A stretch of DNA of 32,000 nt from assembly GCA_964394085.1 (NCBI GenBank), contig CAYMWF010000014.1, positions 27,167 through 59,166 on the forward strand, read 5' to 3'. Shown in pieces: positions 11,222-28,157 of this stretch. Both the position numbers and the translations under genes were made by a program. Numbering within the stretch: the first letter of the stretch is position 1; the number at the start of each line of letters is the position of its first letter. The DNA comes from an uncultured Gemmatimonadota bacterium. GTDB taxonomy: Bacteria; GCA-2686955; CAYMWF01. The notes beneath the pieces were generated by a model that made no database searches, was not told where the DNA came from, and saw only the letters and a program-made list of their open reading frames with translations.

Positions 11222-11255
11222 TCCTTGTTCAACAAGTGTTGATCTGAATCATGCA

Positions 11256-12521: not shown

Positions 12522-12563
12522 CAGTTTTCCTCAGCACCCTGTCTCTTTTACCGTGTTAGAATA

Positions 12564-12580: not shown

Positions 12581-12939
12581 GAAGAGGAACGAGGTCAAGT
12601 TATGCTGTAATGCAATGATTTAAAATACGTTACGGAGAATTCGTTTAATCGCCGGGTTCATTTCCCCTGGGTGAATTGCAGATGTCAATGCATAATGCAC
12701 TATCACCCGATAACATCCTGGATGGGTCTTTTACCGCAGAAGGCTGGGTGAAACAGCCCATGCAAACCGGTTCTACCCCGGTTTGTGAGAGCGGTTTCAC
12801 ATTTGTGGATCGCGTAACCCACTTATTTACCAATGATTAAACATTCCTTAACCACTTTCTTCAGACATGTGGTATACAATTTGCACAAACTCGAGCTAAG
12901 TTGAATACTATGGGATAGTTGCCCGATGGGGAGAGCCGA

Positions 12940-13593
12940 ATGAAAATGAGAAAATTAATCACCACCTGCTTCGCCCTGATCCTTCTCCTTCCGAATGTAT
13001 CTTTGTGTGCCAACGGCGATTATGAAATTCAGGGTGGAGACAGGCTTTATATCGAAGTAATGGATCATACGGAATTGAGTAAAAGCGTAACAGTAAGACC
13101 GGATGGCAAAATATCTTTTCCTCTCATCGGGGATATCTATGCCCGCGGTTTCACTGTAACGCACCTGCAGGAAGTGCTGACGGAAAAACTCGCAGATTAT
13201 GTCCGAGGTACTCACGTCACGGTATTCGTCGAAAGATTTTTCTTCAGCCATGTGCTCGTACTCGGTGCCGTAAAGAATCCAGGCCCGCTTGAAATTTTCG
13301 GTCCTGTGGATGTCATCCAGGTACTGGGAATGACCGAATCGGAAGACAGGGAACCGAAGCGCATCAGGATAATTAGGAAAAATGGAGATGTTACGACGGT
13401 GAGCCTCACCTCCGTGTGGAAGCAGGGGGGTGTGATACAGCACCGGGAAGATTTGCTTCTGCATCCCGGGGATACAATGATCGTTTACGAGAATACGAAA
13501 CTCACCTGGGAGATGATCATGCGTGTAATTATTCTAACGACATTCTTTATGACTGCCTACAATTTCACATATACAGTTACAACCCGCGATTAA
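12940..13593 (+). CDS. polysaccharide export protein (Wza/OPX-like: Poly_export plus SLBB)
   Basis: Signal peptide 'MKMRKLITTCFALILLLPNVSLC'. Poly_export pattern: 'YEIQGGDRLYIEV...VTVRPDGKISFPLIGDIYARGFTVTHLQEVLTEKLADYV'. An SLBB-like segment follows ('VLGAVKNPGPLEI') and there is a C-terminal hydrophobic helix. The ATG at 12940 is preferred over the TTG at 12919. Confidence 0.85.
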   Translation: MKMRKLITTCFALILLLPNVSLCANGDYEIQGGDRLYIEVMDHTELSKSVTVRPDGKISFPLIGDIYARGFTVTHLQEVLTEKLADYVRGTHVTVFVERFFFSHVLVLGAVKNPGPLEIFGPVDVIQVLGMTESEDREPKRIRIIRKNGDVTTVSLTSVWKQGGVIQHREDLLLHPGDTMIVYENTKLTWEMIMRVIILTTFFMTAYNFTYTVTTRD

Positions 13594-13622: not shown

Positions 13623-15758
13623 ATGACAGAAAAGACTGACAGAATGAAGAGAATCAAGGAGTTCCTGCCGGAACGAGGTGGAGAGGCGGCATCCGCGCCT
13701 AAAGATACACCTTTCGACATCCGGCAGTACTACTCGGTTCTCATGCGGCGGAAAGGGCTGATACTCCTGGTAACGGCACTTTTCTGTTTCGTATCGATTT
13801 ACCATTCACTCAGCAATGTTCCGGTATACCAGTCCACGGCAAAGCTGCTCCTCGAGTCCGGGGGCGGGCTGGTGGTTCTCAACCAGAAGCTGACCTATGT
13901 GCCGGGGTACTCGATGAACACATTCATCGAAATTATGAAATCTCCGATGGTGCTCGGTAAAATAATCGATCGGCTGAACCTGGATATGACACCCAAGCAG
14001 CTGTTGAACCATGTCCAGTACCAGCCGAATCAGAATTCGAACATTCTGAGCATATCAGTAACCCATCCTGATGACAGGTTGGCCAAGGGCATTGCCCAGA
14101 CCGCAGCCGAGCTTGCCGTGGAAGAAGTCAATAACATCTATAACGCTTCCACTACCAACGCATACAATACAATCAATGAGCAGCTCGAAATAACCAAGGT
14201 CCAGTTGATGAAGGCCGAGGAGAGCATCAAAGAATTCCTCGCATCGAAGGGTTACAGGAATATCAAGAGCGAAACGACTGCCAAGCTCTCCCGTCTGGCC
14301 AACCTTACCTCCCGATACAACGATTCAAGGGTCGAGATGAACACCAATTCCAAAGTGCTGGAATACCAGCGGACGACACTTGAAGAAACGCCGGATCTCA
14401 TTCTTAAGGAACAGACGATTACAACGCCAATCCAGATGGAAATCGTCAAGCTGGAGACCGAGCTGGCCAAGAGTCGGATAAGCTATTCCGAAAACCACCC
14501 CAAGGTGCAGTCTCTCGTCGGTAATATCGAAGCCCTGAGAGAGCTGATCGGAAACGGAGTCGAAGATGATCTGACCGTGGAAACGGTTGGTGAAAATCCG
14601 GTGAAGCAAGCACTGCTGAATGAGATTAACCTGCGGAAGTCCGAACAGGTGCAGTCTCATGCAAGACAGACTGAGCTTGCACGGTTGATCGATGAGGTCG
14701 AGTCAAGGTTGAGAAACGCACCTTCCGATGAATTGACCCTCGCCCGCCTCGAGCGTGAGAAAAAAGGACTCGAGAATACGTACTTCTCGCTTCTGTCTAA
14801 ATTCGAGGAAGCGAGAATGATGAAAGATACATCCGCCGGCAACCTGAGCATTCTCGAAGAGGCGGATCTCGTCGGCCCCATCCGTGACAATATTTTCGTC
14901 AACCTGCTGTACGCACTTATCCTCGGGCAGATCATCGGAGGGATCCTGGCGGTAATAATCGACACCCTCGACCCGAGAATCAAGTTCAGCTCCAAGATCG
15001 AGGATTCTCTCGGGATACCCGTCCTGGGTCTCATTCCCGATTTGAGAGAAGATGAGCGTTTCGTAAGGTTCGATTCACCGAAATCGAGGATTACGGAAGC
15101 TTACCATATAATAAAATCGAACATCAATAACGCCATGCCGAAAGACCGGGCATGGACCCTCATGGTGACAAGCGCCTTCCAGGGTGAAGGCAAAACGCTC
15201 ATGAGCACCAACCTGGCTACCGCGATGGCGCTTACCGGCAAACCGACCGTACTTATCGATGCGGATATGAGACGCACCTATCTCCATGAGCGCTTTAAAC
15301 TTCAAAAACATGGTGGTCTGTCGGAATATCTCTTAGGCGAGGCAGGGCTCGAAGATATACTGAAAGACACGGATGTCCCCAGCCTGAAAGTCATTACAGC
15401 GGGCAGAAAACCTCAGAATCCGGCTCAATTGCTCCATTCACCCGAGATAACCAGGCTCTTCGAAGATCTGATCAAGCGAGGTTACTATGTAATAGTCGAC
15501 TCACCGGCTCTTCTGCCGATTGTCGATTCATCCATCATGGCAACATACGTAGACGGTGTAATACTGGTATTCAAAGAAGAATCCACCAGGAAATACACCG
15601 CACAGAAGACGATTGAAAGAATGGTTCGGATCGGTGCGAACATCACCGGCTCGATTTTAAACCAGGCTTCAATCAAGGGATACGGTTACTATTACTACTA
15701 CGGATACCGGTATGGGTACGACTATGGGTATTCCGAAAAAATGGAAACCGGCGCCTGA
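13623..15758 (+). CDS. polysaccharide co-polymerase / bacterial tyrosine autokinase (Wzc/GumC/ExoP-like PCP-2a)
   Basis: Two TM segments ('GLILLVTALFCFVSIY', 'FVNLLYALILGQIIGGILAVII') flank a long coiled-coil periplasmic region (Wzz/GNVR-like). The cytoplasmic P-loop has Walker A 'SAFQGEGKT' (GEGKT at 15183-15197), A' 'VLIDADMRR' and B 'YVIVDSPALLP'. The C-terminal tyrosine cluster is 'YGYYYYYGYRYGYDYGY' (15681-15731). Confidence 0.9.
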   Translation: MTEKTDRMKRIKEFLPERGGEAASAPKDTPFDIRQYYSVLMRRKGLILLVTALFCFVSIYHSLSNVPVYQSTAKLLLESGGGLVVLNQKLTYVPGYSMNTFIEIMKSPMVLGKIIDRLNLDMTPKQLLNHVQYQPNQNSNILSISVTHPDDRLAKGIAQTAAELAVEEVNNIYNASTTNAYNTINEQLEITKVQLMKAEESIKEFLASKGYRNIKSETTAKLSRLANLTSRYNDSRVEMNTNSKVLEYQRTTLEETPDLILKEQTITTPIQMEIVKLETELAKSRISYSENHPKVQSLVGNIEALRELIGNGVEDDLTVETVGENPVKQALLNEINLRKSEQVQSHARQTELARLIDEVESRLRNAPSDELTLARLEREKKGLENTYFSLLSKFEEARMMKDTSAGNLSILEEADLVGPIRDNIFVNLLYALILGQIIGGILAVIIDTLDPRIKFSSKIEDSLGIPVLGLIPDLREDERFVRFDSPKSRITEAYHIIKSNINNAMPKDRAWTLMVTSAFQGEGKTLMSTNLATAMALTGKPTVLIDADMRRTYLHERFKLQKHGGLSEYLLGEAGLEDILKDTDVPSLKVITAGRKPQNPAQLLHSPEITRLFEDLIKRGYYVIVDSPALLPIVDSSIMATYVDGVILVFKEESTRKYTAQKTIERMVRIGANITGSILNQASIKGYGYYYYYGYRYGYDYGYSEKMETGA

Positions 15759-15942: not shown

Positions 15943-17508
15943 ATGAATAGAAGGGACTGCCTGCGTATTATTTTTTCACTGGTCATACTCTCATTTACGG
16001 TCTTGACAGCGACAGCCCAGATGGTGAGCGGCGGTTCGGATGACGATAACCGGCAGGCTGAAAGAGGCAAACTCGGTCTTTTCGAAGCCGAGTATGAAGG
16101 CGAGTTCGGCCGGCAGCTCGAATCCAAATTGATGAAGCTTACCGGGAGTGAATATTTTCTGGTGCAGGTGGATATCTCACTCTATGCAGAACAGGACAGA
16201 GATCGTTTCGGCGGCATGACCTATGATAACAGGGCGTCCTTGCCCGGATTACCCGTATCACGATCGACGGAGGTGGATGAAGGCAGCGAAAATTATTTCA
16301 TCTCATCGATGAATATTCAACTTTTTTACGATGAGAGCATTGATCAGGAAATTCTAGCCGAAGCCAGAAAATGGGTGCCTTACTGGCTTCCTACGGACAA
16401 TGCCAATCTCGAATTCATTCCCGTGACCTTTAACAGAGAACTCGGCTATGCGGACCGTCTGAAAATGTTTTTCATGTCACTGGCCGGAGTCGTTTTCGCA
16501 CTGCTTCTTCTCCTGGGTTTGTTCCTTCTATTCAAAATGATTTCGAAAACTTTGAAGTCCGCGCTCAGGGAAGGGAGTGACATGGACGCCAGTCTGATCA
16601 GTGAAACAGAAGGTGGTGGAGCGCCGACGCCCGGATCCGGGGTCGGCGGCGATCAGGGGGATGGTGATGGGGCTGGTGGAGCCGGTTCGTCTTCACTCAG
16701 TGATCTGGCCGAGCAGCTGGGTGACGCCGAATCCCTTGACGGATTATCGGGAATGATGGGTGGCGGACCCCAAAAATCGCAAGCGAGGAAATCGAAAGTG
16801 AGACCATTACACGAAAAATCTTTTGCGTTTCTGCTGAACTTGTCAGACGAGCAGATACTGAGCCTTATAAGAGAGTTACCCCCACAGCACATCGCGGTTG
16901 TACTGTCAAGTTTTATTCCCGAACGGGCCAGCGCTCTTTTCAGGATGCTGGACAGCGATCAGCAAATGACGATTGCCGAGCTTCTTGCAGATGAAGATAC
17001 GATACAGAGCGAAGAGCTTCTCCAATTAAAGGAACTGCTGCAGGAGCGTCTCCGCAGCAGGTTCATAGAACCGATGGAAGTGAGCAGGGGAGGAGAAGGC
17101 TTTTTCTCTTCACTTACTTCGCATCTCGACCTGGGTCTGCTCTCCAATCTCGTGGATAATCTCAAAGATCGCAACCCGGACCTTGCGCGGCAGATACGAA
17201 AGAAGCTGTTTCTGTTTGAGGATACTGTACAGCTCGAGGATAATGCGATAAGGATGATAATACAGGCAATCGATTTGAAGGTGCTCGCATTGGCATTGAG
17301 AGATTCGTCACTGGAGGTTAAGGATAAATTCATCCGGAACTGTTCGGACAGGGTACAGGACATAATCGAGGAAGAGCTTGAGATAAGTGTCTCTCAGCCG
17401 AATGAACTTGCCGAGCTTGCGCAAATTGAAGTCGTTAAACTAGTGAGGAATCTTGCAGAGGCCGGCCGGATCGAACTTCCGGTCGCCAATGAATTACCAA
17501 TTCAGTAA
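15943..17508 (+). CDS. membrane-anchored FliG-like protein: N-terminal TM/signal, ~150-aa extracytoplasmic domain, TM helix, Gly/Asp-rich linker, then FliG middle and C-terminal (torque) domains
   Basis: ATG at 15943 behind GGGAGG. TM1 'CLRIIFSLVILSFTVLTATA' follows 'NRRD'. TM2 'MFFMSLAGVVFALLLLLGLFLLF' (about 16465-16542) is followed by 'KMISKTLK', consistent with the positive-inside rule. Linker: 'GGGAPTPGSGVGGDQGDGDGAGGAG'. FliG_M-like: 'LIRELPPQHIAVVLSSFIPERASALFRML'. FliG_C-like: 'LFLFEDTVQLEDNAIRMIIQAIDLKVLALALRDSSLEVKDKFIRNCSDRVQDIIEEELE...QIEVVKLVRNLAEAGRIEL'. The last segment aligns position by position with the E. coli FliG C-terminus as I remember it. Confidence 0.8.
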   Translation: MNRRDCLRIIFSLVILSFTVLTATAQMVSGGSDDDNRQAERGKLGLFEAEYEGEFGRQLESKLMKLTGSEYFLVQVDISLYAEQDRDRFGGMTYDNRASLPGLPVSRSTEVDEGSENYFISSMNIQLFYDESIDQEILAEARKWVPYWLPTDNANLEFIPVTFNRELGYADRLKMFFMSLAGVVFALLLLLGLFLLFKMISKTLKSALREGSDMDASLISETEGGGAPTPGSGVGGDQGDGDGAGGAGSSSLSDLAEQLGDAESLDGLSGMMGGGPQKSQARKSKVRPLHEKSFAFLLNLSDEQILSLIRELPPQHIAVVLSSFIPERASALFRMLDSDQQMTIAELLADEDTIQSEELLQLKELLQERLRSRFIEPMEVSRGGEGFFSSLTSHLDLGLLSNLVDNLKDRNPDLARQIRKKLFLFEDTVQLEDNAIRMIIQAIDLKVLALALRDSSLEVKDKFIRNCSDRVQDIIEEELEISVSQPNELAELAQIEVVKLVRNLAEAGRIELPVANELPIQ

Positions 17509-17529
17509 ATAACCGGAGGATAGTCGCCG

Positions 17530-17739
17530 ATGATCACGATTCATAGGCTGGACGGAACAGAACTGGTTTTAAATGCGGAACTTATCGAGAATCTGGAACG
17601 AAAGCCCGACACAATTATCACCTTGACCAACGGCAAACGCCTGGTTGCGAAAGAAAGTGTCGAGGATATTTGTGATCTGGTGATTGAATACAGGCGAACG
17701 GTTTACAGCCGGAAGAGAGATAAGGATGCAGGGGTCTGA
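17530..17739 (+). CDS. flbD: FlbD family protein (flagellar-operon small protein)
   Basis: 69 aa. 'MITIHRLDGTELVLNAELIENLERKPDTIITLTNGKRLVAKESVEDICDLVIEYRR' matches the FlbD family pattern (RLNG..., ..IE..PDT.ITL.NGKK..V.ESV.EV...V.EY). GGAGGA RBS upstream. It sits directly upstream of motA-motB, as in spirochaete and Firmicute flagellar operons. Confidence 0.88.
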   Translation: MITIHRLDGTELVLNAELIENLERKPDTIITLTNGKRLVAKESVEDICDLVIEYRRTVYSRKRDKDAGV

Positions 17740-17757
17740 AAAAACAGGAGCTGAGTT

Positions 17758-18504
17758 GTGGGCGTATTCAGTTTATTAGCGTTAATGATTGGGTTTGTTA
17801 TCGTAGCGGGATCGATCGTACTGAACGGAGATCCGCAATGGTTCATTTTCTGGCCGGGAGTGGCGATTACCATGGGCGGCACAGCCTGTGTGGCGATAGT
17901 AGCATATCCGATTCGCCAGATCGGGCACTCGGCGAGAGTGTTTTTCCAGATGGCCGCCAGGAGGAATCCAAAACCCGAAAAGGCTTATGATCGACTCCTG
18001 GATATAGCCCGAACGGCCCGTCGCGAAGGATTCGTCGGCCTTTCGCTGGATGAGAAAAAAGACAGTAATCTGCAATTCCTCCAGACGGGAGTAGAACTTC
18101 TGGCGGATGGAGCCGATCCCGACCAGATTACCGCGATTATGGATTCCAAGTCGGATATGGTTTCGGAGGAATACCTGGTAGGTGAAAAACTTTTTACGAC
18201 GCTGGGAACCGTCGCACCGATGTGGGGCCTGCTCGGGACCGTTATCGGTCTCATCCTCATGTTGAATAATGTCGATAATCCTGAATTGATTCCCAAATCG
18301 ATGGCGATCGCCATGGTGACGACTTTTTACGGCATTTTTCTTGCGGCTCTTTTTATGATTCCTATTGCCATGAAATTCAAAAGCTTCAGAGAGAAGGATG
18401 AAAAAATCCGGGAGATGATTATAAGAGGGGTTCTCTCAATCCAGTCCGGCGACAGTTCCAGGATCGTGCAGGAGAAACTCGAATCTTACAACCTTCTGAG
18501 GTAG
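17758..18504 (+). CDS. motA: MotA/PomA-type stator channel subunit (MotA_ExbB family)
   Basis: GTG start behind AGGAG. Four TM segments. The cytoplasmic loop is charged ('ARTARREGFVGLSLDEKKD'). TM3 is 'LGTVAPMWGLLGTVIGLILML' and TM4 is 'AMVTTFYGIFLAALFMIPIAMKF', each with the conserved Pro. At 248 aa it has no long C-terminal tail. Confidence 0.88.
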   Translation: MGVFSLLALMIGFVIVAGSIVLNGDPQWFIFWPGVAITMGGTACVAIVAYPIRQIGHSARVFFQMAARRNPKPEKAYDRLLDIARTARREGFVGLSLDEKKDSNLQFLQTGVELLADGADPDQITAIMDSKSDMVSEEYLVGEKLFTTLGTVAPMWGLLGTVIGLILMLNNVDNPELIPKSMAIAMVTTFYGIFLAALFMIPIAMKFKSFREKDEKIREMIIRGVLSIQSGDSSRIVQEKLESYNLLR

Positions 18505-18509
18505 GAATA

Positions 18510-19256
18510 ATGAGCACAAGAGGTCTTTATACTCAAAAGAAGCGAGCTGGCTCCGGAACCGCCCTCCCACCTTGGATTACAACCTACAGCGATCTCATCA
18601 GCCAGCTACTGGTTTTCTTTATCATGTTGTTTTCTCTGACAAAAGCCGGCAGGATCGTAGAGCTCCAGGAATCCCTCAAGGAGTTCCAGGAAAAAGTCGA
18701 AATGGGATACCTTGTCAAGGACGGTGAGAAGCCGGGTGAAGTGGTGCTGAGGCTGGAGGCGGAGGTCCTTTTCGATTCCGGAAAGGCTCTGTTGAAGGAG
18801 ACCGCCCGACCTGCGCTCGACAATGTATATGAAATCATCCTGGAAGACATAGATCGCAGGGGGGCCGCAACCATCAGAGTGGAGGGGCATACCGATACGA
18901 GGCCCATTCACACAGTGAGGTTCCCCTCCAACTGGGAGTTGTCGGCGGCAAGAGCCATCAGTGTCGTCAGGTATTTCCTGGCAAAGGGGCTTTTTACGCC
19001 GGATAATATGCAGGCGGTGGGCTTCGGAGAGTTCAAACCGATAGCTCCCAACGACACCTACGCGAACATGCAGAAGAACCGCCGGGTAGAGATCAAGATC
19101 ATCAGAACCAATATCACTACCGAGGATGTCGCATTTCCAACCCTTACCGAGGAAGGAATTATCACTGTCGATACACTCGGACAGGAGTTGGTAATTCCGC
19201 ATATCGATAAGAAATTCGAGGAATTTTTAGGGGAAATCGATACTGTCGAACAGTAA
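18510..19256 (+). CDS. motB: MotB-type stator subunit with OmpA-like peptidoglycan-binding domain
   Basis: The single TM 'PPWITTYSDLISQLLVFFIMLFSL' carries the conserved proton-binding Asp (YSDL). OmpA_C-like region: 'RVEGHTDTRPI...SNWELSAARAISVVRYF...NRRVEIKI'. It starts 5 nt after the motA stop. Confidence 0.9.
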   Translation: MSTRGLYTQKKRAGSGTALPPWITTYSDLISQLLVFFIMLFSLTKAGRIVELQESLKEFQEKVEMGYLVKDGEKPGEVVLRLEAEVLFDSGKALLKETARPALDNVYEIILEDIDRRGAATIRVEGHTDTRPIHTVRFPSNWELSAARAISVVRYFLAKGLFTPDNMQAVGFGEFKPIAPNDTYANMQKNRRVEIKIIRTNITTEDVAFPTLTEEGIITVDTLGQELVIPHIDKKFEEFLGEIDTVEQ

Positions 19257-19281
19257 AAAGATCTAATGGTATTGGGGAAAT

Positions 19282-22200
19282 ATGCAAACCAAAAGCAAAA
19301 CTTTACTAATCTTCACAACCATTTTTATTCTTGCTGCCCACCATGCCGTTCTCGCTCAGCAGGCGGAGTTTGATTTCAGCAGGTGGCCCGGAACCGTAAA
19401 CCTGGAAGGAGAACACTTGGGGGATCTCCTCGGTTCCACCGTCGTTGCCGGTGATTTTGACGGTGACGGGTGGCAGGATCTTGTTATCGGAGCACCCCAA
19501 TCTGATGAGCCGGGCAAAGCTTCCTGCGGCAAGGTATACGTTATTTACGGAAAAGCGGGATACGAGGGGAGCTACGTGTTAGACGATCCGTTCGTCGATC
19601 ATTTGACCCTCTCGGGTGATACAGGGAATGATGAACTCGGCAATGTTATCGATGTATGGGATGTGGAAGGAAACGGATCGGATGATCTGCTGCTGGGGGC
19701 TCCAAAGGCGGATGTCTCCGGTAAGGTTGATGCAGGAAAGATTTATCTGTTATACGGGGGATCAAGGACGACAGGGGAGTTCAATATCGGTGAATTTCCA
19801 GGTATGCTCCGGGTTGATGGAAACGAGGCTGCGGATCAGTTCGGCGCGTCGGTTGCAGCCGGTGATTTTACCGGTGATCTTGAAACCGATTTGATTGTGG
19901 GCGCTCCGCTTGCGGAGCCAGCCGGTGAAGCGTCTACAACGGGCATCGCCTATCTTCTGAAAGGACCGCTTGGAAGCGGAGTGAAAACTCTGGATGCACT
20001 TGCATCGATGGTAGTTTACGGCGAACAGACCGATGATCGCCTCGGTTCGCAGGTTCTCGGGCTTAATTTAAACGACACCGGTCCGGATGATATGGTCTTT
20101 GCCGCTCCCAACGCGGATCTGCCCGACGAGCAGAGGGAGCGAGGCATTCTTTACGTAATGTTCGGCTCAGGATCACTGCCCGCGGAGGTTGAATTGGCCC
20201 AGGGGGATTCCGCTGATGTGACGATGGCCGGAAATGCAGGCTCTTCCCGTTTCGGAACCGCACTCGATGGGGGTGATATAGACGGGAACGGGTACGATGA
20301 GATTGTAGCCGGGGCACCGGGCGGCGGAAGCGTATTGGTAATCGAAGGACGGTCGAGCTTCGACCCTTTCATCGATTTGACCTATTCCAGTCCCGCTCTG
20401 TCAATATCCGGCAGTGATTCTCTCGGGTCGGTGCTTCAGGTAAATGATTACACCGGGGATGGTCTGGCTGACATCTTTTTAGGTACACCTGCCACCGCTC
20501 CGAGCGGGAAAGCATACCTGGTAAACGGCGGTCCGTTGACAGGGGCATCAGGCTCGGTTCCCGATCTGGGCCGCTGTATTTTCAGCGGAGACAGAACCGG
20601 CGATAGACTTGGTCAGGCTGTCTGCCTGGGTGATTTTGTTAAAGACGGCAAACCCGATATGATCATCGGCGCTCCCCAGGCTGAGGGAGAAGAAGGTACA
20701 GATGCCGGGCTCGTTTATATCGTGAAGGGCGGGACGCCATACTTGACCGATCTTTATCCAGGATACGGGGAGAGTGGAATACCAGCGGATTTCGACATGG
20801 AATTCTGGATTCGGGATGACCTTACTGCAAGTGAAGAGGACATCAATCTCAACACATTGGAAGTATATCTTTCGGGGTATACCTTCACTGCAGCGGATTT
20901 CGACACCACGGGCTCAGTTGGTGCGGAGGCGATTCACGTGCTTCTCGATATAGTGCCCGGCACCTTCCTGCCCAATACAGCCGTCGACGCTGAGATAACT
21001 GGATTCGACAAGGCCGGTAACGAGATCCCGACGACACAGTACGTTTTCCATATGCTGAATGATTTCACGGGGCCTTGGCTCGAGAACATTGCTCCTCCGG
21101 ATTCTTCGAAATACCAGCCGGTTCAGCCGGAAATCGCCTTCAGCATTCTCGACGCCGCCAGCGGTGTGGATCTCGATGAAGTCTGGATGCATGTCGCCTA
21201 CGATACAACGGCGGGCATGCCCGTTACCGACACCTTCTTCCCTAAAACGGATACGTTGATCGTGGTTGACACCATTTCGGTATCCCCACTGGGATACAGA
21301 ATCAGCTATATACCGCCTGAGCCCTTTATGATGGGCGACCAGATACATGTAGAAGTCGAAGGAAAAGACTTCGCGGGTTTTCCTCTGCAGGATCCCCGGA
21401 AGTGGCTCTTTACCACGGTGGACAATGATACTTTACCGCCCATCCTACAGAATGAATTTCCCGCGAACGGCGCTTCCGGAGTAGAGGTCCAGGCTGTAAA
21501 TGTGGATGGCTTTCTGGTAGAGATCTATGATGAGCAAACAGGGGTTAATCCCGCATCCATAGATGTCACCAGGACTTACGAAGCTATTTCAGGAGACACG
21601 ACAGTATCGATCACAGATTTGATCGAAATCGGGAGAATTGATGCGAATCTTTATACTGTCTCGTATCGTCCGACCGGACAGGAAGGTGATCCTCAGTTTC
21701 AGTATGGCGAAACAGCCAGGTTCAATGTACGTGCTTTTGATCTTGCGTTCGAGCCGAACCTGATGGATACGACATATTCATTCATCCTCGAAACCGACAT
21801 AAATCCGCCGGAGATCACCGGACGGCAGCCGAACCCTGACCTGGTCGATTCGATATCGGTGTTCTCAGAAATCAAGTTCGATATCACCGATGACAAGAGC
21901 GGAGTCGATGACTCTACGATCGTTTTCAAGGTGAATAATGAAGAAATAGACATTGAGGACCTGATCTCTCCGAATGAATACCTGGGATATACGATCAGAT
22001 ACCCGAACATCCCTGACTCCCTGGAACAGGTGCCGCTCCCAGAAGATACGGTCACCGTTTCCGCCTGGGCCGCCGATAACGTCGGCAACGAGATGGTGCT
22101 GCCGGAAGAATGGAGTTTTATCGCCGTTCCGGATTCAAGAACGCCCAGGATGACATTTTCGATGGAAATGCTTCTGGTGGAGCAGTCCGACACTATAGAA

Positions 22201-22881
22201 GTCTGGGAGACAATCCCGCCTTCCGATTACCTCCTCAATAAAATCCCGCAGGACTCGATCCGTATCTCCTTTACCGTAACGGATACTATTGATGAATGGG
22301 AATCAGGTATCGACCTGTCGACGATGCTGATAATGATGGAGCTTGAGAATACCGGTCCGCCCCCGATCATTCTTCTCAGTGAGGGTGAGGAAACCCATAC
22401 CGGGTACAAAACCGGCACCATGGATATCGACGAAACTGAATCACCCGGTTTATATAACGTTAGTTTCGAACCGGACCGTCTTTCAATTGCCGAAGAGGTG
22501 ACACTGTCCGTCTCTGTCAGGGATAAGGGCGGAATCCAGGTGGTGGAGCAGTTACGGTTTAATATCAGTTACGGCGGAAGGCTCAATAAACCGTTCCCTC
22601 CTATAATCACTCCGGCTCATGGCTCAGATCCGAATAACCGAACGACAATCCTTTTCCTTGGTGAGGGTTCGGGAACATTTACGCTTTACAACCTTGAAGG
22701 ATACGCGGTTTACAGCGAGGAGAACATACCTCCTCTCAGCGGCTCCCTGTACAAAGTGACATGGGGCGGAGAATACGGCGCACCGGGGAGCAGCCAGAGA
22801 ATCGTACCGGCCGGTCTTTATGTATATCAATTCAAATCGAGCTCAAAGGTTTATAACGGCACAATCGCCGTAGCGCGTTAA
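19282..22881 (+). CDS. large secreted protein: signal peptide, seven FG-GAP repeats (integrin-alpha-like beta-propeller), about five tandem Ig-like modules, and a T9SS-type/FlgD-Ig-like C-terminal domain
   Basis: Signal 'LLIFTTIFILAAHHAVLAQQ'. Seven repeats end in ...GAP: GDFDGDGWQDLVIGAP, WDVEGNGSDDLLLGAP, GDFTGDLETDLIVGAP, LNDTGPDDMVFAAP, GDIDGNGYDEIVAGAP, NDYTGDGLADIFLGTP, GDFVKDGKPDMIIGAP (about 19399-20736). The module motif 'D..SG(V/I)D..(S/T)(I/L)' recurs roughly every 110-135 aa (about 20.8-22.4 kb). The C-terminal ~80 aa are 'FTLYNLEGYAVYSE...LYKVTWGG...VPAGLYVYQFKSSSKVYNGTIAVAR'. Confidence 0.8.
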   Translation: MQTKSKTLLIFTTIFILAAHHAVLAQQAEFDFSRWPGTVNLEGEHLGDLLGSTVVAGDFDGDGWQDLVIGAPQSDEPGKASCGKVYVIYGKAGYEGSYVLDDPFVDHLTLSGDTGNDELGNVIDVWDVEGNGSDDLLLGAPKADVSGKVDAGKIYLLYGGSRTTGEFNIGEFPGMLRVDGNEAADQFGASVAAGDFTGDLETDLIVGAPLAEPAGEASTTGIAYLLKGPLGSGVKTLDALASMVVYGEQTDDRLGSQVLGLNLNDTGPDDMVFAAPNADLPDEQRERGILYVMFGSGSLPAEVELAQGDSADVTMAGNAGSSRFGTALDGGDIDGNGYDEIVAGAPGGGSVLVIEGRSSFDPFIDLTYSSPALSISGSDSLGSVLQVNDYTGDGLADIFLGTPATAPSGKAYLVNGGPLTGASGSVPDLGRCIFSGDRTGDRLGQAVCLGDFVKDGKPDMIIGAPQAEGEEGTDAGLVYIVKGGTPYLTDLYPGYGESGIPADFDMEFWIRDDLTASEEDINLNTLEVYLSGYTFTAADFDTTGSVGAEAIHVLLDIVPGTFLPNTAVDAEITGFDKAGNEIPTTQYVFHMLNDFTGPWLENIAPPDSSKYQPVQPEIAFSILDAASGVDLDEVWMHVAYDTTAGMPVTDTFFPKTDTLIVVDTISVSPLGYRISYIPPEPFMMGDQIHVEVEGKDFAGFPLQDPRKWLFTTVDNDTLPPILQNEFPANGASGVEVQAVNVDGFLVEIYDEQTGVNPASIDVTRTYEAISGDTTVSITDLIEIGRIDANLYTVSYRPTGQEGDPQFQYGETARFNVRAFDLAFEPNLMDTTYSFILETDINPPEITGRQPNPDLVDSISVFSEIKFDITDDKSGVDDSTIVFKVNNEEIDIEDLISPNEYLGYTIRYPNIPDSLEQVPLPEDTVTVSAWAADNVGNEMVLPEEWSFIAVPDSRTPRMTFSMEMLLVEQSDTIEVWETIPPSDYLLNKIPQDSIRISFTVTDTIDEWESGIDLSTMLIMMELENTGPPPIILLSEGEETHTGYKTGTMDIDETESPGLYNVSFEPDRLSIAEEVTLSVSVRDKGGIQVVEQLRFNISYGGRLNKPFPPIITPAHGSDPNNRTTILFLGEGSGTFTLYNLEGYAVYSEENIPPLSGSLYKVTWGGEYGAPGSSQRIVPAGLYVYQFKSSSKVYNGTIAVAR

Positions 22882-22898
22882 CAACGGGGAAAATCAGG

Positions 22899-24542
22899 AT
22901 GTTTTTCAAGGCTCGGAACCAGCTCATACTCTCTGTTCTGATCATCGTCGCTGCAGCTTTGCCTTCCGAGGCTTCTTTCGAGAGGAGGGCAGGAATCCGT
23001 GCGCTGGGTATGGGGGGCGCTTTTACCGGAGTCGCCGATGATGCTTCAGCCCCTTACTGGAATCCTGCCGGAATTGGGCGGTTTTCAGCGGTTGAATTCA
23101 GAGCCGAGTATGCCCGGCCGTTTACCGGAGCTGCAAACATTGATATCAACGATGTGGATTTTGCTTTCGCGTATCCTTTCGGTAACTGGGGAACCATGCT
23201 GGGTGGTTACGACTATCTCGGTAACTACCTGTACAATGAAGGAGTCGGGATTTTTTCATACGGCTTAGGTCTTCTCAAGCGTAAACCGCTTCTTGTCGGA
23301 TTTAATGCGCGTCTTTACAGTGTCAATTACAGCGTCGGGGGGCTTTCGTCCGTGGATGCAGGTCAGGTTAAGAAGGATCTCCTGTTTTCGAATTATGGAT
23401 TCGGTGAATCGGCTTTCGGCTTTGATCTGGGTGCTTTATACAGGTACCGGAATAAATGGACGGTCGGAGTTTCACTGTTCAATCTGAATGCACCATCGAC
23501 GAGCCTGAATCCGGACGATCAAGACGAACTTCCTCTCACTGGCCGGATAGGGATATCGTATTTATTCAAAAGGCTCACGGGAGCACTCGACCTGGAATAC
23601 AGGGATCAGTACTTCATGGACAGCAAGCCTGTATATATTCATACAGGCGTTGAGCAGGAGCTGTTCAGGAAACGACTGCACCTTCGGGCCGGTGCTTTCG
23701 GTATGGTTTCCCCCGAATTCTCACCCCGCCTTACAGCCGGATTCAGCTACAACTTCCTCAGAAGGGAATGGGTCGAATTCGGCACGGATCTTCTTGACGG
23801 CAAGGAATACCAGTATCTTAAACGGCTCTGGCTCACTCTCGAATACGGCGCGGCGTTCCCAGTTGCATCAGGTTCCTTTGAAGGCTCTTTCGGAGATCAG
23901 CGTATCGGTCTCAAAATCACATTCGACACTGCCAAGGAATACAAAAAATACATGACGCGCCAGGAACTGGAAGAAATGCTGAAAGACAAGAAGATAGAGG
24001 TCGCTCTCGATATCACCGAGTCGCTTCTCGAAAAGGAATTCGAGATCATCGAAGGTGAGAAAGAGATGATCCAGCAGGAACTCCAGGAGAGGTTCGACCA
24101 GGAACGGCAGGAGCTCATGCAAGACCTCGAGATGCAGCAGGAGCTGGAACTCGAGCAAAAACGTATAGAGCAGGATCTATTGACTGCAGGACAGCAGGAA
24201 GAGCTGGAAGAACAGATTCGTCAGTTGCAGGAGATTATCAGGCAGCAGCAGCGGGCGATCGAAATGAGCACCAAGACGAATGAAGCGCTTCAGCATCTCA
24301 TGCTTGCCGTCAGATATTATTTTCTGCAGCAGTACGGGGAGGCTGAAAAGGAATGTTATATAGCCATCGAGCTCGCCCCTCATATCGCACTGGCATACAA
24401 GCGTCTGGGATCGATTTACTACAAGCAGGGCAGGTTCAGCGATGCCAGCGCCGCATGGAAGAAGGCGCTTGATATCGATCCGACCGATGAAGAACTGCAA
24501 AATTGGCTTGAAAGATTCAGGAAAGGGAAAAATCTCGAATGA
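22899..24542 (+). CDS. outer-membrane beta-barrel (PorV/PorQ-like N-terminal signature) fused to an E/Q-rich coiled coil and C-terminal TPR repeats
   Basis: Signal 'LILSVLIIVAAALPSEA'. 'RALGMGGAFTGVADDASAPYWNPAGIG' is followed by alternating aromatic/Gly-rich strands to about aa 343. The coiled coil 'QQELQERFDQERQELMQDLEMQQELELEQKRIEQD...' spans about 23934-24269. The TPR-like tail is 'AVRYYFLQQYGEAEKECYIAIELAPHIALAYKRLGSIYYKQGRFSDASAAWKKALDIDP'. Confidence 0.7.
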   Translation: MFFKARNQLILSVLIIVAAALPSEASFERRAGIRALGMGGAFTGVADDASAPYWNPAGIGRFSAVEFRAEYARPFTGAANIDINDVDFAFAYPFGNWGTMLGGYDYLGNYLYNEGVGIFSYGLGLLKRKPLLVGFNARLYSVNYSVGGLSSVDAGQVKKDLLFSNYGFGESAFGFDLGALYRYRNKWTVGVSLFNLNAPSTSLNPDDQDELPLTGRIGISYLFKRLTGALDLEYRDQYFMDSKPVYIHTGVEQELFRKRLHLRAGAFGMVSPEFSPRLTAGFSYNFLRREWVEFGTDLLDGKEYQYLKRLWLTLEYGAAFPVASGSFEGSFGDQRIGLKITFDTAKEYKKYMTRQELEEMLKDKKIEVALDITESLLEKEFEIIEGEKEMIQQELQERFDQERQELMQDLEMQQELELEQKRIEQDLLTAGQQEELEEQIRQLQEIIRQQQRAIEMSTKTNEALQHLMLAVRYYFLQQYGEAEKECYIAIELAPHIALAYKRLGSIYYKQGRFSDASAAWKKALDIDPTDEELQNWLERFRKGKNLE

Positions 24543-25753
24543 CGGATCCCCCTGTCAGAGAGCACAGTTATTTAGCCAGGAATTACTCGAAAATCCAAAA
24601 AGGTGTATACCTGCTGTTATTACTGGCCCTGAGCGTGGCTGTTATACTGGTGATTTTCGCACTTATATCCTCTCCGGAGCAGAAATCTTATCCATTCAGC
24701 CCCGATAGTGATGAAGTTGCCAAGATGGTCTCGGTAACTGTCACGGGCTCCATCCACAGACCGGGAACATTCGAATTACCGGAAGGTTCGACTGTGTATG
24801 ATGCCCTGGTACTGGCGGGTGTCAAGAATACCGCGGACCTTGGAAACCTCGTTCTCGAACAACGCTTTGCCAGCAGTGAGAATTTTATCCATGTCGACGA
24901 AATAGAAAGGGATGAAGATGCCGCTGTAGACATGAATCCGTATATCGTACCGTTGATTGACAGTGGCGAAGACAGTTTAGAATCGAACAAAGGTAGTGAT
25001 ACCGGGGATGAAACTTCCGACATAGCCTCGTTAAACGTCGTCAATATACTTTATGTCGGAGCTCCTCATGTATTCCTTCTGGCATCTGTCGCTCCGGCGA
25101 CCGGAAACGGATCGTTTCTGGTGATCCCGCCCCAGACCCGAATTTCTCATCCCAGGTCCGGAGCCGGCAATCAGCTCAGCCACCTTTACCTTCTCGGCGG
25201 CGCCGGCTCGATTGTCGCATATGTCGAACGGCTCCTGCAATTACCTGTTCACTACTACGTGGAAGACAAGCAGGAAACGTTCATTACAACCGTAGAGCTG
25301 ATCGGAGGATTCCGAGTCAAGCTTGATAATGAAATAGCGGAGCATCTCCAAAAGGAGCCGGGATATCAAACCCTCACCGGGATGGACAGTTTTCGATTCA
25401 TTCAGTATTTCGATATATCCTCCAATGCGGATACTTACAGGAGAAGCACGCAGACCCGTATGTTGAGGTGGCGCCGATTCCTGGATTCCGTCTACGCTAA
25501 TTTTCGTGGCATGGACTGGCGTCAGACCATTCTCCTTGCAAGGCACATCATTCTCAACCTCGAGACGAACCTGGCACTGCAGGATGTTTTATATCTTGCC
25601 AGGAGCGCCAGAACCCACGGAGGGTTCAACTTCGACTTCCACCTGATTCAGGGTTCATACCAGAAGATCGGTGATAAGGTCTATTGGGAAATCGATGACA
25701 GCGTCGCCAGGATCGAGGGCTTGAAGCTTATTGAAATGGTTCTGAATCGGTGA
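24539..25753 (+). CDS. membrane-anchored SLBB-domain protein with divergent LytR-CpsA-Psr (LCP)-like C-terminal domain
   Basis: The ATG overlaps the upstream TGA (ATGA). TM 'VYLLLLLALSVAVILVIFALI'. SLBB pattern 'VSVTVTGSIHRPGTFELPEGSTVYDALVLAGV'. An acidic linker follows. LCP-like layout: 'NILYVG...FLLASVAPATGNGSFLVIPPQTRI...LYLLGGAGSIVAYVERLLQLPVHYYVEDKQETFITTVELIGGFRVKLD'. The usual Arg-containing motifs are not obvious. Confidence 0.6.
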   Translation: MTDPPVREHSYLARNYSKIQKGVYLLLLLALSVAVILVIFALISSPEQKSYPFSPDSDEVAKMVSVTVTGSIHRPGTFELPEGSTVYDALVLAGVKNTADLGNLVLEQRFASSENFIHVDEIERDEDAAVDMNPYIVPLIDSGEDSLESNKGSDTGDETSDIASLNVVNILYVGAPHVFLLASVAPATGNGSFLVIPPQTRISHPRSGAGNQLSHLYLLGGAGSIVAYVERLLQLPVHYYVEDKQETFITTVELIGGFRVKLDNEIAEHLQKEPGYQTLTGMDSFRFIQYFDISSNADTYRRSTQTRMLRWRRFLDSVYANFRGMDWRQTILLARHIILNLETNLALQDVLYLARSARTHGGFNFDFHLIQGSYQKIGDKVYWEIDDSVARIEGLKLIEMVLNR

Positions 25754-27002
25754 ACTCGACATCCCGAATCTGAGCATCCTGTTCCTTCTCGCTTTTTTTA
25801 GCCCCCAGGTAGATAACAATAGCGACCATTCCGATTATTCCTATCCCCTGGAGGATTACGATCAGGGCGCCGATCGGGTCGAGGTTGTCGAGGAGGGTTG
25901 CATTTATCCCAAGGCAGAATGTCAGCAGATAGATGAATTGCACGGCCTGCGGCTGCGTCAATCCCAGACGGACCAGCTGATGCGAGAGGTGGTTCTGATC
26001 CCCGAGGAATATGGGAGCTCCCTGTTTCAGCCTGACGTAGATTACGGAAAAAGTATCGAAAAGAGGCAGCGACATGATGAGAACGGGCATGAGCGCCGGA
26101 AAGACGAAAGAACTTTCCGGTGTTGCGAAAGTGATCAGAATGGATGCCGCGGCCAGGATGAAGCCGATAAAGAGGCTGCCGGCATCACCGAGAAAAATCG
26201 TCGACGGATAGACATTGTATCTGTAGAATCCGAGCAGCGCTCCCCCCAACGCAGATAGAAGCAGAGCCACAAAGAACTGACCGTGATGGATTGTCACAAA
26301 TGCCAAGATTCCCGTTACGATCAATGCCACCCCCGAAGAAAGCCCATCCATATTATCAAGCAGATTGAACGAATTCGTAATACCGACGATCCATGTGATA
26401 CTGATCACGATGTTAACGAGGTCGAATAATGGTACACCGCTGAAAAAAGATGTTCTGATTCCCGCTGCTACCAGTATTGATGCTGCGATTACCTGGCCGA
26501 CCAGCTTCAACCTGGCCGGGAAGTAAACACCATACAGATCATCGATAAGGCCGAGCAGGACGATCAGTGTGCTCCCTATCACCAGGGCAAAAAGCTGAAT
26601 CTTGACATACCTTACACCTTGGAACAATTCGATCGTGTGAGCCATGCTCCCGTCTAACCAGCCGGTGGGAAGAATGTAGAAGAACAGGATACAGGAAAGG
26701 GGTAAGAGACAAGCCGGACAAAAGACAGCCAGCCCCCCGAGTAAAGGTTTCACGCTTACGTGAACTTTTCTCTCTCCGGGATGGTCCACTATATCGAATC
26801 TAAAGGCGATCCACTTGCAAAGTGGAATGAGCATCAGGGAGAATATGAGCGAAATGAGGAATACGCCCGTAAAGACAATAATCTGTTCAAGATCTCTCGG
26901 CATTACACTTAATAACGGAATCAAAACCTGAATTATCAAGGATTTTCCGTTATTCTTTCTGCTGAGGACCGACATGGTCCCGGAGACGCAAACCGATACC
27001 AT
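25728..27002 (-). CDS. polyprenyl-phosphate HexNAc-1-phosphate transferase (MraY/WecA/WbpL family, Pfam Glycos_transf_4)
   Basis: Polytopic membrane protein with about 10-11 hydrophobic segments. Motifs: 'GLIDDLYG' (DD) and 'NSFNLLDNMDGLSSG' (NxxNxxDGxDGL). Its location in a glycan locus rather than a dcw cluster argues for a WecA-like initiating enzyme. The start is uncertain (alternative ATG at 26903). The 3' end overlaps the convergent upstream gene by 26 nt. Confidence 0.85.
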   Translation of the reverse strand: MVSVCVSGTMSVLSRKNNGKSLIIQVLIPLLSVMPRDLEQIIVFTGVFLISLIFSLMLIPLCKWIAFRFDIVDHPGERKVHVSVKPLLGGLAVFCPACLLPLSCILFFYILPTGWLDGSMAHTIELFQGVRYVKIQLFALVIGSTLIVLLGLIDDLYGVYFPARLKLVGQVIAASILVAAGIRTSFFSGVPLFDLVNIVISITWIVGITNSFNLLDNMDGLSSGVALIVTGILAFVTIHHGQFFVALLLSALGGALLGFYRYNVYPSTIFLGDAGSLFIGFILAAASILITFATPESSFVFPALMPVLIMSLPLFDTFSVIYVRLKQGAPIFLGDQNHLSHQLVRLGLTQPQAVQFIYLLTFCLGINATLLDNLDPIGALIVILQGIGIIGMVAIVIYLGAKKSEKEQDAQIRDVEFTDSEPFQ

Positions 27003-27101: not shown

Positions 27102-28157
27102 TTGAACCAGGATAAGCAGCCTCTGACCATGAGCGGGGATATTCTTTTTCTGAGAAAAGGTTACCTTGGCGACATAGTTCTACTGTGCCGCCTGGTTTCT
27201 TCATTAAAAGCTAGCGTTCCCGATCTGTCGGTGGGAATCGCGACTCATGATCGTTACCGCGATCTCGTCCGCCTCTTTCCGGCGGTCGATTCATGGTTCC
27301 GTTTCCCCGACCGCCTCTCTCCGGATATTTCGACGGTTTCGGCAATAACTCCACTGGCAATTTCGCGATATCGCTGGATCCTGCCGGTCAATTACGATCG
27401 CAGATACAATGTTCTCGCGCGTCTGGTCGCTTTTCTAGGGGGGGGGAAGGTATTGGCGATGCCCGGTTCGGAATCAGGCTGGAGCTGCGGGAGCCGGCAT
27501 CGGGCCGGGTTGATCGCGGACGCGCTCCTTCCGATTGCTGATATCGATTTCTCCATAGAAATCGAACCGTTGAAGCCGGACAGGGATAGTCTGAGCAGGT
27601 TGGCTGGAATATATGATCTTCTGCAACAATCTCCGGTCGTGATTTTCCCCGGAGGAGGGGATCACCGGAAGGTTCACCCCGATCCCAGGCGCTGGGCGGA
27701 AAGGCATTTCGCGACCTTGATCGACATTCTGGATGATGCCGGTGTGGGGCCGTTGATACTCCAGGGATCCGCGGAAGAAAACAAGATTCTTTCGGATGTG
27801 GCGGCTCGCTGCAAAACGGAAGTTGTGGTTCTGTCCGGAAAACTGGGATTGGTGGAGCTTGCTTCTTTCCTTTCCCTCAGCAGGCTGGTAATCGCCGTCG
27901 ACAGCGGACCGATTCAACTGGCTGCGGCCGCGGGATGTGCCACATTGATGTTAAGCGGGCCCGTTGCGCCGGAGACGAGCAATCCGGCGGGACTCAATCA
28001 CAGGTATGTAAGAGGTTATGATGAATGTATACCCTGTTTTCCGGCTCCGAGACTGGTTGAATGCCGGGAGGGTATACCATTGTGTATGAGCAGGTTGACT
28101 CCTGAAACAGTCGCTTCGACGGTTCTGGAGATGCTCGGTTGCGGAATGGAATGTTGA
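27102..28157 (+). CDS. glycosyltransferase family 9 (heptosyltransferase-like)
   Basis: 'ILFLRKGYLGDIVLLCRLVSSLK' matches the N-terminal GT9 pattern. 'RRWAERHFATLIDIL...LSGKLGLVELASFLSLSRLVIAVDSGPIQLAAAAGCATLMLSGP' matches the C-terminal GT9 pattern. The TTG at 27102 or the ATG at 27129 could be the start. Confidence 0.8.
   Translation: MNQDKQPLTMSGDILFLRKGYLGDIVLLCRLVSSLKASVPDLSVGIATHDRYRDLVRLFPAVDSWFRFPDRLSPDISTVSAITPLAISRYRWILPVNYDRRYNVLARLVAFLGGGKVLAMPGSESGWSCGSRHRAGLIADALLPIADIDFSIEIEPLKPDRDSLSRLAGIYDLLQQSPVVIFPGGGDHRKVHPDPRRWAERHFATLIDILDDAGVGPLILQGSAEENKILSDVAARCKTEVVVLSGKLGLVELASFLSLSRLVIAVDSGPIQLAAAAGCATLMLSGPVAPETSNPAGLNHRYVRGYDECIPCFPAPRLVECREGIPLCMSRLTPETVASTVLEMLGCGMEC
27438..27446 (+). 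repeat. G9 homopolymer tract inside the GT9 gene (encodes Gly-Gly-Gly, in frame)
   Basis: Direct read: TTTCTA-GGGGGGGGG-AAGG. I traced both shifts. G10 leads to a stop at 27539-27541 and G8 leads to a stop at 27511-27513. Confidence 0.9.

Follow-up and report, generated by a model that had tools for sequence, protein, structure and literature searches.

Can the rotor and stator of a flagellar motor be put to work where there is no flagellum? The question is raised by a 32,000-nt stretch of DNA from an uncultured Gemmatimonadota bacterium (assembly GCA_964394085.1, contig CAYMWF010000014.1, positions 27,167 to 59,166; hereafter the window), in which seven plus-strand genes encode a FliG-type rotor protein, FlbD, MotA, MotB, a large FG-GAP surface protein, an outer-membrane barrel with a TPR domain and an SLBB-LCP protein. 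To our knowledge, all FliG rings characterised so far are flagellar, and the known co-options of 5:2 motors (Ton, Tol, GldLM, AglRQS and Zorya) all dispense with a FliG-type rotor. We have found that the rotor protein is a truncated FliF joined covalently to the middle and C-terminal domains of FliG, and that this fusion recurs with MotAB, a barrel-TPR protein and a giant surface protein in several phyla. The reading that we favour, and judge a little likelier to be right than wrong, is that these genes encode a non-flagellar envelope machine in which a flagellum-derived rotor and stator energise an adhesin-carrier pair.

The seven open reading frames (ORFs) lie at 15943-17508, 17530-17739, 17758-18504, 18510-19256, 19282-22881, 22899-24542 and 24539-25753. 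The gaps between them are 21, 18, 5, 25 and 17 nt, and the final pair shares 4 nt (ATGA), reproducing the same-strand arrangement and spacing reported in an earlier note on this DNA that was made from the sequence alone. A plausible Shine-Dalgarno sequence precedes every start. From gene spacing only, we infer that the seven genes share a single transcript. Scanning for sigma-70-like promoters and for terminators gave no signal above chance bounding the operon; promoter-like counts were at chance and terminator-like counts slightly above it, with no plus-strand site between the seven genes.

The first gene (15943..17508, plus strand) has a GGAGG Shine-Dalgarno sequence 5 nt before its ATG and encodes a 521-aa protein that reads FliF(RBM3-TM2), linker, FliG(M+C), as assigned from Pfam matches, profile comparison, an AlphaFold2 (AF2) model and Foldseek. 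A signal peptide or first transmembrane segment (TM1, residues 3-28) is followed by a periplasmic RBM3-like ring-building domain (16045..16425, residues 35-161), in which a short beta-hairpin replaces the collar insert of FliF, and by a second transmembrane segment (TM2; 16456..16557, residues 172-205, from hydropathy). Beyond a disordered linker rich in G, A, D and S (16573-16800, residues 211-286), for which the predicted local distance difference test (pLDDT) score is below 50, come the FliG middle domain (16849-17058) and C-terminal torque domain (17155-17478), which together span 16849..17478. Both FliG domains score above the Pfam cut-offs (FliG_M, PF14841, 36 bits; FliG_C, PF01706, 90 bits). 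The protein matches 1lkv with E 2.5e-26 by sequence and 2.7e-12 by fold, and its FliG_C domain superposes on 1qc7 with a template modelling score of 0.88-0.95 in Foldseek. The torque-helix arginine and acidic pair are conserved (SDRVQDIIEEELE in the window against SKRAAALLKDELE in Thermotoga maritima FliG), and E477 occupies one of just four columns that are invariant in 19 family members.

The N-terminal half is derived from FliF. A profile of this domain, built from the 19 members, matched Salmonella FliF (6scn) over residues 233-488, comprising RBM3, the collar and TM2, with E 3e-9, and it also picks up true FliF in two flagellar loci, L007 and L026. Thirteen of the 19 members match PF08345 (YscJ_FliF_C). 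The AF2 model (mean pLDDT 72) has the RBM topology alpha-beta-(hairpin)-beta-alpha-beta, and Foldseek returned for it both FliG MC structures (E ~1e-12) and FliF S-ring or RBM3-collar structures (8z4d, 6sd1 and 7d84). The earlier description of a membrane-anchored, FliG-like protein is therefore right for the C-terminal half, which matches FliG_M and FliG_C and superposes on solved FliG, and incomplete for the FliF-derived N-terminal half. Likewise, the statement that no fliF occurs anywhere holds for a full-length gene and not for RBM3 and TM2, which are present in the fusion.

What the fusion lacks is as informative as what it retains. RBM1 and RBM2 (PF01514) house the export gate, FliG_N binds the C-terminal tail of FliF, and the EHPQR motif binds FliM. 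No match to PF01514 (YscJ_FliF) was obtained in the N-terminal 212 aa even at E<=10, and only ~130 periplasmic residues are present. FliG_N is absent: TIGR00207 reached 119.8 bits where the cut-off is 226.7, the match covering model positions 110-326 only, the region ahead of FliG_M being occupied by the disordered linker. The FliM-binding motif is lost, with T. maritima 'SEHPQT' standing opposite 'ELPPQH' in the window, and this motif is variable across the family. Because RBM1, RBM2, FliG_N and EHPQR are missing, the rotor protein is a covalent mini-FliF::FliG(MC) subunit that leaves no room for a switch complex, a rod or an export gate; for the same reason it cannot be the flagellar rotor protein, nor can it replace FliF or FliG.

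An exhaustive HMMER search found ordinary FliG (~335 aa) plus a distinct family of fusions of 430-715 aa. A word-indexed search gave four matches with the full-length fusion and one spurious match with the N-domain alignment, and was likely swamped by low-complexity and transmembrane words. Members of the family share a signal peptide/TM1, a periplasmic domain of ~130 aa with the motifs SLPG(L/I)PV and RGD..(L/I), TM2, a G/A/E-rich linker, FliG_M and FliG_C. Some (P0010, P0012, P0015 and P0016) have a further, partial FliG_C-like repeat behind the first, as well as long helical linkers, so the cytoplasmic part of the rotor is variable across the family. Two further kinds of natural fusion are separate from this truncated family, namely FliM-FliG fusions (P0011, P0079, P0098, P0113, P0129 and L017:3062-6064), some with DUF4116 repeats or two FliG_MC copies, and full-length FliF-FliG fusions (P0063, P0134 and P0140). 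Loci L009 and L017 were considered as family members and rejected as flagellar variants of the FliM-FliG type.

MotA5B2 stators turn proton flux into rotation against the C-terminal torque helix of FliG, and the next three genes encode such a stator and its small associate. FlbD, a SwrD-type stator-associated protein (17530..17739, plus strand), matches PF06289 over residues 1-58 at 84.7 bits against a cut-off of 24.7; it is found in some lineages only, in related loci of classes I and III described below. The MotA/PomA-type A subunit (17758..18504, plus strand; MotA_ExbB, 91 bits) aligns end to end with Vibrio alginolyticus PomA (8brd), residues 3-244 against 3-241, with E 5e-39, and keeps the equivalents of PomA R88/K89 and E96/E97 (ARREG...SLDEK in the window opposite ARKGG...ALEEME in PomA). 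The best scores of the stator proteins against NCBIfam flagellar equivalogs stayed below the cut-offs (PomA, 172 bits against 341; MotS, 153 bits against 264). The B subunit (18510..19256, plus strand; PF13677, 37 bits; PF00691, 66 bits) has a plug, the conserved channel Asp28 within TTYSDLISQLL and an OmpA-like peptidoglycan-binding domain, and the motif TTYSDLISQLLVFF is common to its relatives. In the terms of PMC12505986 the stator is of the flagellar 'FIT' type, and FIT (PomA/MotA-type) stators were found there with flagella only.

A variation on the stator was seen in three Elusimicrobia-type loci (L010:14759-16148, L018:14594-15988 and L019:14643-16033), in each of which MotB is present as two paralogues in tandem. 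In the first of them Gly replaces the proton-carrying Asp (PPWYWSYTGMALL) and the second retains Asp (PPWMSSMSDITTQ), which suggests that the B2 axle is a heterodimer with one working Asp.

Related loci were collected from species-representative genomes and Joint Genome Institute (JGI) metagenomes using a 6-sequence alignment as query, and their flanks were annotated by phmmer. More than 20 independent loci contain an RBM3-like fusion together with MotAB, and they come from Gemmatimonadota, Cloacimonadota, Elusimicrobiota and unplaced bacteria. They fall into four architecture classes, in all of which MotAB lie directly 3' of the fusion, and in at least three phyla the fusion-MotAB core usually lies beside a barrel-TPR protein and a giant protein with a shared C-terminal domain (CTD). 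The window belongs to class I, of which L001 is 76-94% identical to it; the nearest named relatives are Gemmatimonadota metagenome-assembled genomes (MAGs) at 38-53% identity. In one such MAG (L006), nine genes are colinear with the window in the order Wza, Wzc, fusion, FlbD, MotA, MotB, FG-GAP, barrel-TPR and SLBB-LCP, with 27-53% identity; L004 and L005 are also from Gemmatimonadota. In L021 and L032 the same parts are reordered as Wzc-SLBB_LCP-Wza ... fusion-MotA-MotB-FG-GAP-barrelTPR, without FlbD. Class II, from Cloacimonadota (L012, L027, L029 and L035), has a giant cadherin/PKD/Big_9 protein of up to 5700 aa followed by the barrel-TPR protein, fusion, MotA and MotB. Class III, from Elusimicrobia UBA5214 and relatives (L003, L008, L010, L016, L018 and L019), has a GEVED giant, the barrel-TPR protein and a fusion with a C-terminal TPR, after which come an ~800-aa protein without assigned identity, FlbD, MotA and the two MotB paralogues. 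Class IV (L011, L013, L014, L020 and L025) consists of the fusion, MotA, MotB and a periplasmic TPR protein. The SLBB-LCP and Wza/Wzc genes are confined to class I, and the conserved unit is the fusion with MotAB, the barrel-TPR protein and the CTD giant, not the seven-gene operon.

Other flagellar genes were sought with a query set taken from the bona fide flagellar operon of L007 (FlgC, FliF, FliG, FliH, FliI, FliK, FlgE/G, MotAB, FliL and FliP). Across 33 related loci (439 kb) it gave matches for FliG, MotA and MotB only, and further flagellar genes are absent from the 10 kb around each related locus. The window and the 10 kb upstream of it on the 84.7-kb contig likewise contain no other flagellar genes.

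The proposed cargo of this motor is the 1199-aa secreted surface protein encoded at 19282..22881 (plus strand), which has a signal peptide, an FG-GAP beta-propeller at approximately residues 40-480 (six repeats, 123 bits), a long stretch without a family match and a C-terminal sorting domain. The latter, ~100 aa encoded at 22582..22878 and ending GLYVYQFKSSSKVYNGTIAVAR, is a divergent domain like that of type-B (CHU_C) cargo in type IX secretion (T9SS). Orthologues of the FG-GAP protein occur in L006, L021 and L032, and their tails pass CHU_C at 31-41 bits; profile-profile comparison by hhalign places the window tail with them (96.6%, E 6e-10). Of the two likenesses proposed earlier for this tail, the one to T9SS domains stands through homology to the CHU_C-positive orthologues and not through the score of the window tail itself, and the one to FlgD-Ig was dropped since no FlgD_ig match was found in the tail. 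The giants that adjoin the barrels have unrelated bodies (FG-GAP, cadherin/Big_9 of up to 5700 aa, or GEVED) and one common C-terminal domain of ~90 aa with the pattern ...W.G.D..G..V..G.Y.YQ......G.I.(V/I)A(R/K). SprA, GldK, GldL, GldM and GldN were not seen in any of the loci examined. In the Cloacimonadota-type locus L035, a gene 5 kb from the module (18724-19968) encodes a protein whose tail is a bona fide type-A T9SS one (Por_Secre_tail); since it lies on the same contig, this organism probably has T9SS-type sorting.

The barrel gene (22899..24542, plus strand) starts 17 nt past the stop of the FG-GAP gene, and the adjacency of giant and barrel is also found in L006, L012, L021, L027, L035, L010, L018 and L038. 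Its product resembles an outer-membrane carrier (PorP_SprF, PF11751, 25.2 bits against 22.3; also TraF_2 and TPR_1) in which a FadL/PorV-fold barrel (22986-23927) is followed by a pair of long helices (24018-24323) and then by a TPR domain (24333-24521). An AF2 model built with database homologues has a signal peptide, a barrel of ~14 strands, the two long helices and the TPR. Foldseek matched the barrel to FadL (5e-9), and its best superposition was on a T9SS substrate complex chain (8gl6_F; template modelling score 0.59, root mean square deviation 4.9). NCBI names the barrel's relatives 'PorV/PorQ family protein', and the window barrel scores 51 bits against the cut-off of 90 for NCBIfam PorV_fam. 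The barrels of classes I-III are mutually homologous and adjoin the fusion. A PorV-like barrel with coiled coil and TPR had been proposed for this gene, and Pfam, AF2 and Foldseek agree with it; nearly all of the earlier domain calls across the cluster were in fact borne out by Pfam matches over cut-offs.

A homologous barrel is also found in Elusimicrobiota locus L037:4386-17673 (GCA_043810025.1), with an adjacent 1892-aa protein that has a Por_Secre_tail/FlgD_ig-like C-terminus. There, the pair is followed by a 1002-aa TPR protein and ExbB-ExbD-ExbD-TonB in place of FliF-FliG/MotAB. Because the barrel module precedes a Ton-type motor, this hints that such barrels may need inner-membrane energy of some kind.

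It is hypothesized that RBM3 joins the fusion subunits into a ring in the inner membrane, which would carry a FliG torque ring on its cytoplasmic side and would have no export gate, rod or FliM/FliN switch. PomA-like MotA5B2 units, anchored to peptidoglycan through the OmpA domain of MotB and aided by FlbD, would turn this ring by a proton or sodium gradient. The periplasmic face of the ring, either directly or by way of the helical/TPR extension of the barrel, would pass the work on to the outer membrane, where the output would be a carrier-adhesin pair and not a filament: a PorP/SprF/PorV-family barrel holding the 1199-aa FG-GAP protein by its type-B-like CTD. Motor energy might then drive movement of the pair within the outer membrane, for surface motility or gliding, or might serve to pull out and deploy the adhesin. 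In class I, the Wza, Wzc, LCP and glycosyltransferase proteins would add a polysaccharide component, and since the module of the window's lineage sits inside such a locus, synthesis and export of a polysaccharide probably accompany it there. The earlier suggestion of a machine that uses proton-motive force (PMF) to act on the large surface protein is supported, because the rotor cannot be a flagellar one and the core recurs across phyla with no other flagellar gene within 10 kb. That the module specifically couples a flagellar rotor-stator, in the absence of a flagellum, to a T9SS-type-B-like cargo and carrier, we regard as close to an even call. More tentatively, and with the balance tilted somewhat against it, the module may be the first flagellar rotor-stator pair outside a flagellum, a self-contained inner-membrane rotary engine that drives carrier barrels and giant adhesins in Gemmatimonadota, Cloacimonadota, Elusimicrobiota and other little-studied phyla, for a new surface motility or an energised deployment of adhesins, by a mechanism parallel to and independent of GldLM gliding. 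Literature searches turned up no account of a FliF-RBM3/FliG fusion combined with MotAB in a setting other than flagellar, and we rate the module as outside the known kinds of system.

Comparison with described machines shows where the parts are familiar. In Bacteroidota, a dedicated 14-strand barrel of the PorP/SprF kind, encoded next to the type-B cargo, keeps that cargo bound (PMC9143113), and the periplasmic tail of SprF is coupled to the motor-driven track that propels SprB (PMC12635249). The window resembles this GldLM-SprF-SprB arrangement in having a giant adhesin with a type-B-like CTD beside a dedicated FadL/PorV-fold carrier with a periplasmic C-terminal extension, and a PMF-driven 5:2 motor of the inner membrane encoded nearby, which likely moves or extracts the carrier-adhesin pair (PMC12635249, PMC9143113). 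The T9SS type-B cargo and carrier pair would be a better analogue than PorV shuttling. Unlike GldL5M2, with its periplasm-spanning GldM, the motor here is MotAB (with FlbD) on a FliF-RBM3/FliG ring; the carrier tail is a helical segment plus TPR, whereas the SprF type has a twin-cysteine tail; the locus has no GldK, GldN or GldJ homologue; and the host phyla lie outside Bacteroidota. The Porphyromonas gingivalis PorP-PorE-PG1035 complex is similar in that a 14-strand PorP binds a surface type-B CTD protein and a periplasmic, peptidoglycan-anchored TPR partner (PMC9143113). In P. gingivalis, PorE is a lipoprotein of its own, with OmpA and beta-propeller domains, and the complex is thought to be static, whereas here barrel and TPR form one protein and MotB supplies the anchor to peptidoglycan.

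With the flagellar motor, the module shares homologous RBM3, TM2, FliG_M and FliG_C, the torque charges and a PomA-like stator with its plug, Asp, OmpA anchor and FlbD. Full-length FliF-FliG fusions, engineered and natural, form rings (PDB 8z4d; P0063, P0134 and P0140). It differs in lacking RBM1/2, FliG_N and EHPQR, in having no FliM/N, export, rod, hook or filament genes nearby, and in its adhesin, carrier and polysaccharide neighbours. The Agl-Glt and Agl-Nfs machines of Myxococcus are likewise PMF-driven 5:2 motors acting on a trans-envelope complex with outer-membrane barrels and TPR proteins, and Nfs works with a Wza/Wzc-type (Exo) polysaccharide exporter. AglRQS is, however, of TolQR type ('GIT' clade, PMC12505986) and has no FliG rotor, and homologues of Glt and Nfs were not detected here.

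The domain identities, the kept torque and proton residues and the synteny across phyla are shown, whereas the formation of a ring, its turning, a contact of the RBM3 ring with the TPR, the physical link to the barrel and the role in the cell are deduced. Several observations weigh against the envelope-machine reading. In the rotor protein itself, the FliG charge equivalent to R297 is not retained, and the window N-domain alone falls below the Pfam threshold, so that its single sequence has no Pfam match. The tail of the FG-GAP protein, taken alone, is also sub-threshold (CHU_C, PF13585, 14 bits where the cut-off is 27, E 0.055; TIGR04183, E 0.025). A crude neighbor-joining tree of the FliG domain fails to group the family into a single clade (best F1 0.68; monophyletic in 4 of 30 bootstraps). 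Class IV loci have no adjacent barrel or giant protein, and the cytoplasmic C-terminal TPR of some fusions, which resembles the periplasmic TPR of the barrel, is hard to accommodate in a single coupling model. Finally, some Cloacimonadota have been counted as carriers of flagellar genes (bioRxiv 10.64898/2026.06.11.731707).

Other explanations of the locus share part of this evidence. The motor could mainly serve polysaccharide, its work being used to export or spread the Wza/Wzc/LCP product or to attach it to the wall, with the FG-GAP protein and barrel as accessories; the closest precedent is Myxococcus Agl-Nfs with its Exo Wza/Wzc exporter. The window, L001, L005 and L006 all have Wza, Wzc and SLBB-LCP linked to the motor genes, as do L021 and L032 in another order, and a WecA-like initiator and a long run of glycosyltransferases follow the cluster. 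We consider this unlikely, since the Cloacimonadota-type, Elusimicrobiota-type and class IV cores have no Wza/Wzc/LCP genes within 10 kb and the partner that persists across phyla is the barrel-TPR protein with the CTD giant, not the exporter. Equally doubtful is an energy transducer that is not for motility but powers secretion, gating or release at the barrel in the manner of TonB or of a T9SS 'energy chain', the adhesin being exported or shed once. Retention of the whole FliG torque ring and the RBM3 domain suggests sustained rotation of a large rotor over a TonB-like pull. The homologous barrel, giant and large TPR protein that precede ExbB-ExbD-ExbD-TonB in L037 speak for such a transducer, although the Ton genes may be mere neighbours there, and Bacteroidota use one motor for secretion as well as for gliding (PMC12635249).

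The locus could also be a dispersed or accessory flagellar operon, in which the stators of an ordinary flagellum encoded elsewhere and a FliG paralogue (as a clutch, brake or stator reservoir) have become chance neighbours of polysaccharide genes. In its favour are the flagellar (PomA/MotP-like) type of MotA, MotB and FlbD, the flagellar genes in some members of the host phyla and the established precedent of the EpsE-FliG clutch. We nevertheless find it quite improbable: the fusion is unable to replace FliF or FliG, no other flagellar gene accompanies it in the 439 kb of related loci or in the 10 kb upstream of the window, and both the position of MotAB after the fusion in four classes and the barrel/giant synteny are kept across phyla. 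An anti-phage or membrane-stress system of the Zorya kind was suggested by a PADLOC match of MotB to ZorB models (E 3e-22), which involves only the generic MotB/OmpA region. MotA did not match ZorA, is of PomA length and lacks the long ZorA tail; there is no ZorC-, ZorD- or ZorE-like partner, and no other cluster protein was matched in PADLOC. A Zorya or other defence system is thus effectively refuted.

If the envelope machine proves to be a conserved non-flagellar module, it would offer a minimal rotor for structural and biophysical work, free of export gate, rod and switch, and a candidate mechanism of motility or adhesion in abundant uncultured phyla. It would be a second route, independent of GldLM, by which inner-membrane torque reaches outer-membrane adhesins, and a new data point on the evolution or dismantling of the flagellar motor. 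It is very unlikely, in our estimate, that the module descends from a pre-flagellar rotor predating recruitment of the type III export apparatus and axial structure. 'FliG' and 'MotA/MotB' annotations in these phyla should not be taken as evidence of flagellar motility.

The remaining genes of the cluster and its flanks mostly concern polysaccharide, and the flanks carry the Pfam/NCBIfam domains expected from the Wza- and Wzc-like proteins upstream and the WecA-like transferase and glycosyltransferases downstream that had been named before. The Wza-like export protein (Poly_export and SLBB_2; 12919..13593, plus strand; PF02563, 81 bits) is 224 aa from a TTG start and 217 aa in the public gene call, and its gene is linked to motor genes in L006, L005, L021 and L032. 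The Wzc-like chain-length determinant, a BY-kinase with a Tyr-rich C-terminus (13623..15758, plus strand), has Wzz, GNVR and P-loop regions, matches TIGR01007 at 164 bits against a cut-off of 108 and is 52% identical to its L006 orthologue. The last gene of the seven (24539..25753, plus strand) encodes a membrane-anchored, glycopolymer-transferase-like protein with SLBB (24734-24865; PF10531, 33 bits) and LCP (25076-25465; PF03816, 39 bits) domains, and is tied to Wza/Wzc in L006, L021 and L032. Under the Wzc, pepcterm and TagU equivalog models, the Wza, Wzc and LCP proteins of the window all fall below cut-offs.

Convergent with the SLBB-LCP gene is that of the WecA-like polyprenyl-phosphate sugar-phosphate transferase (25728..27002, minus strand; PF00953, 109 bits; GT4 in our list of flanking genes). 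The two share 26 nt at their 3' ends (25728-25753), which leaves no space for a terminator between them. Plus-strand glycosyltransferase genes of families GT9, GT2 and GT9 follow at 27102..30948, and the run goes on past the window with one GT2 and at least three GT4 genes.

Between etfA and the Wza-like gene, 1.7 kb (11221-12918) contain no ORF of more than 108 aa and no tRNA or Rfam match; Rfam and tRNA scans as a whole found nothing. Positions 12195-12905 are 64% identical to L001 at the DNA level, the left ~975 nt of the interval having no L001 counterpart, and are best kept as a minus-strand frame (~139 aa, 55% amino acid identity; ORF 12195-12521) with no Pfam family. The other genes of the window are housekeeping genes (sucCD, fabDG-acpP-fabF, rnc and etfBA). 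Between sucD and yceD, at 3403-4323, a single gene unrelated to the motor cluster fuses a phosphotransferase system (PTS) EIIA(2) domain to two CBS domains.

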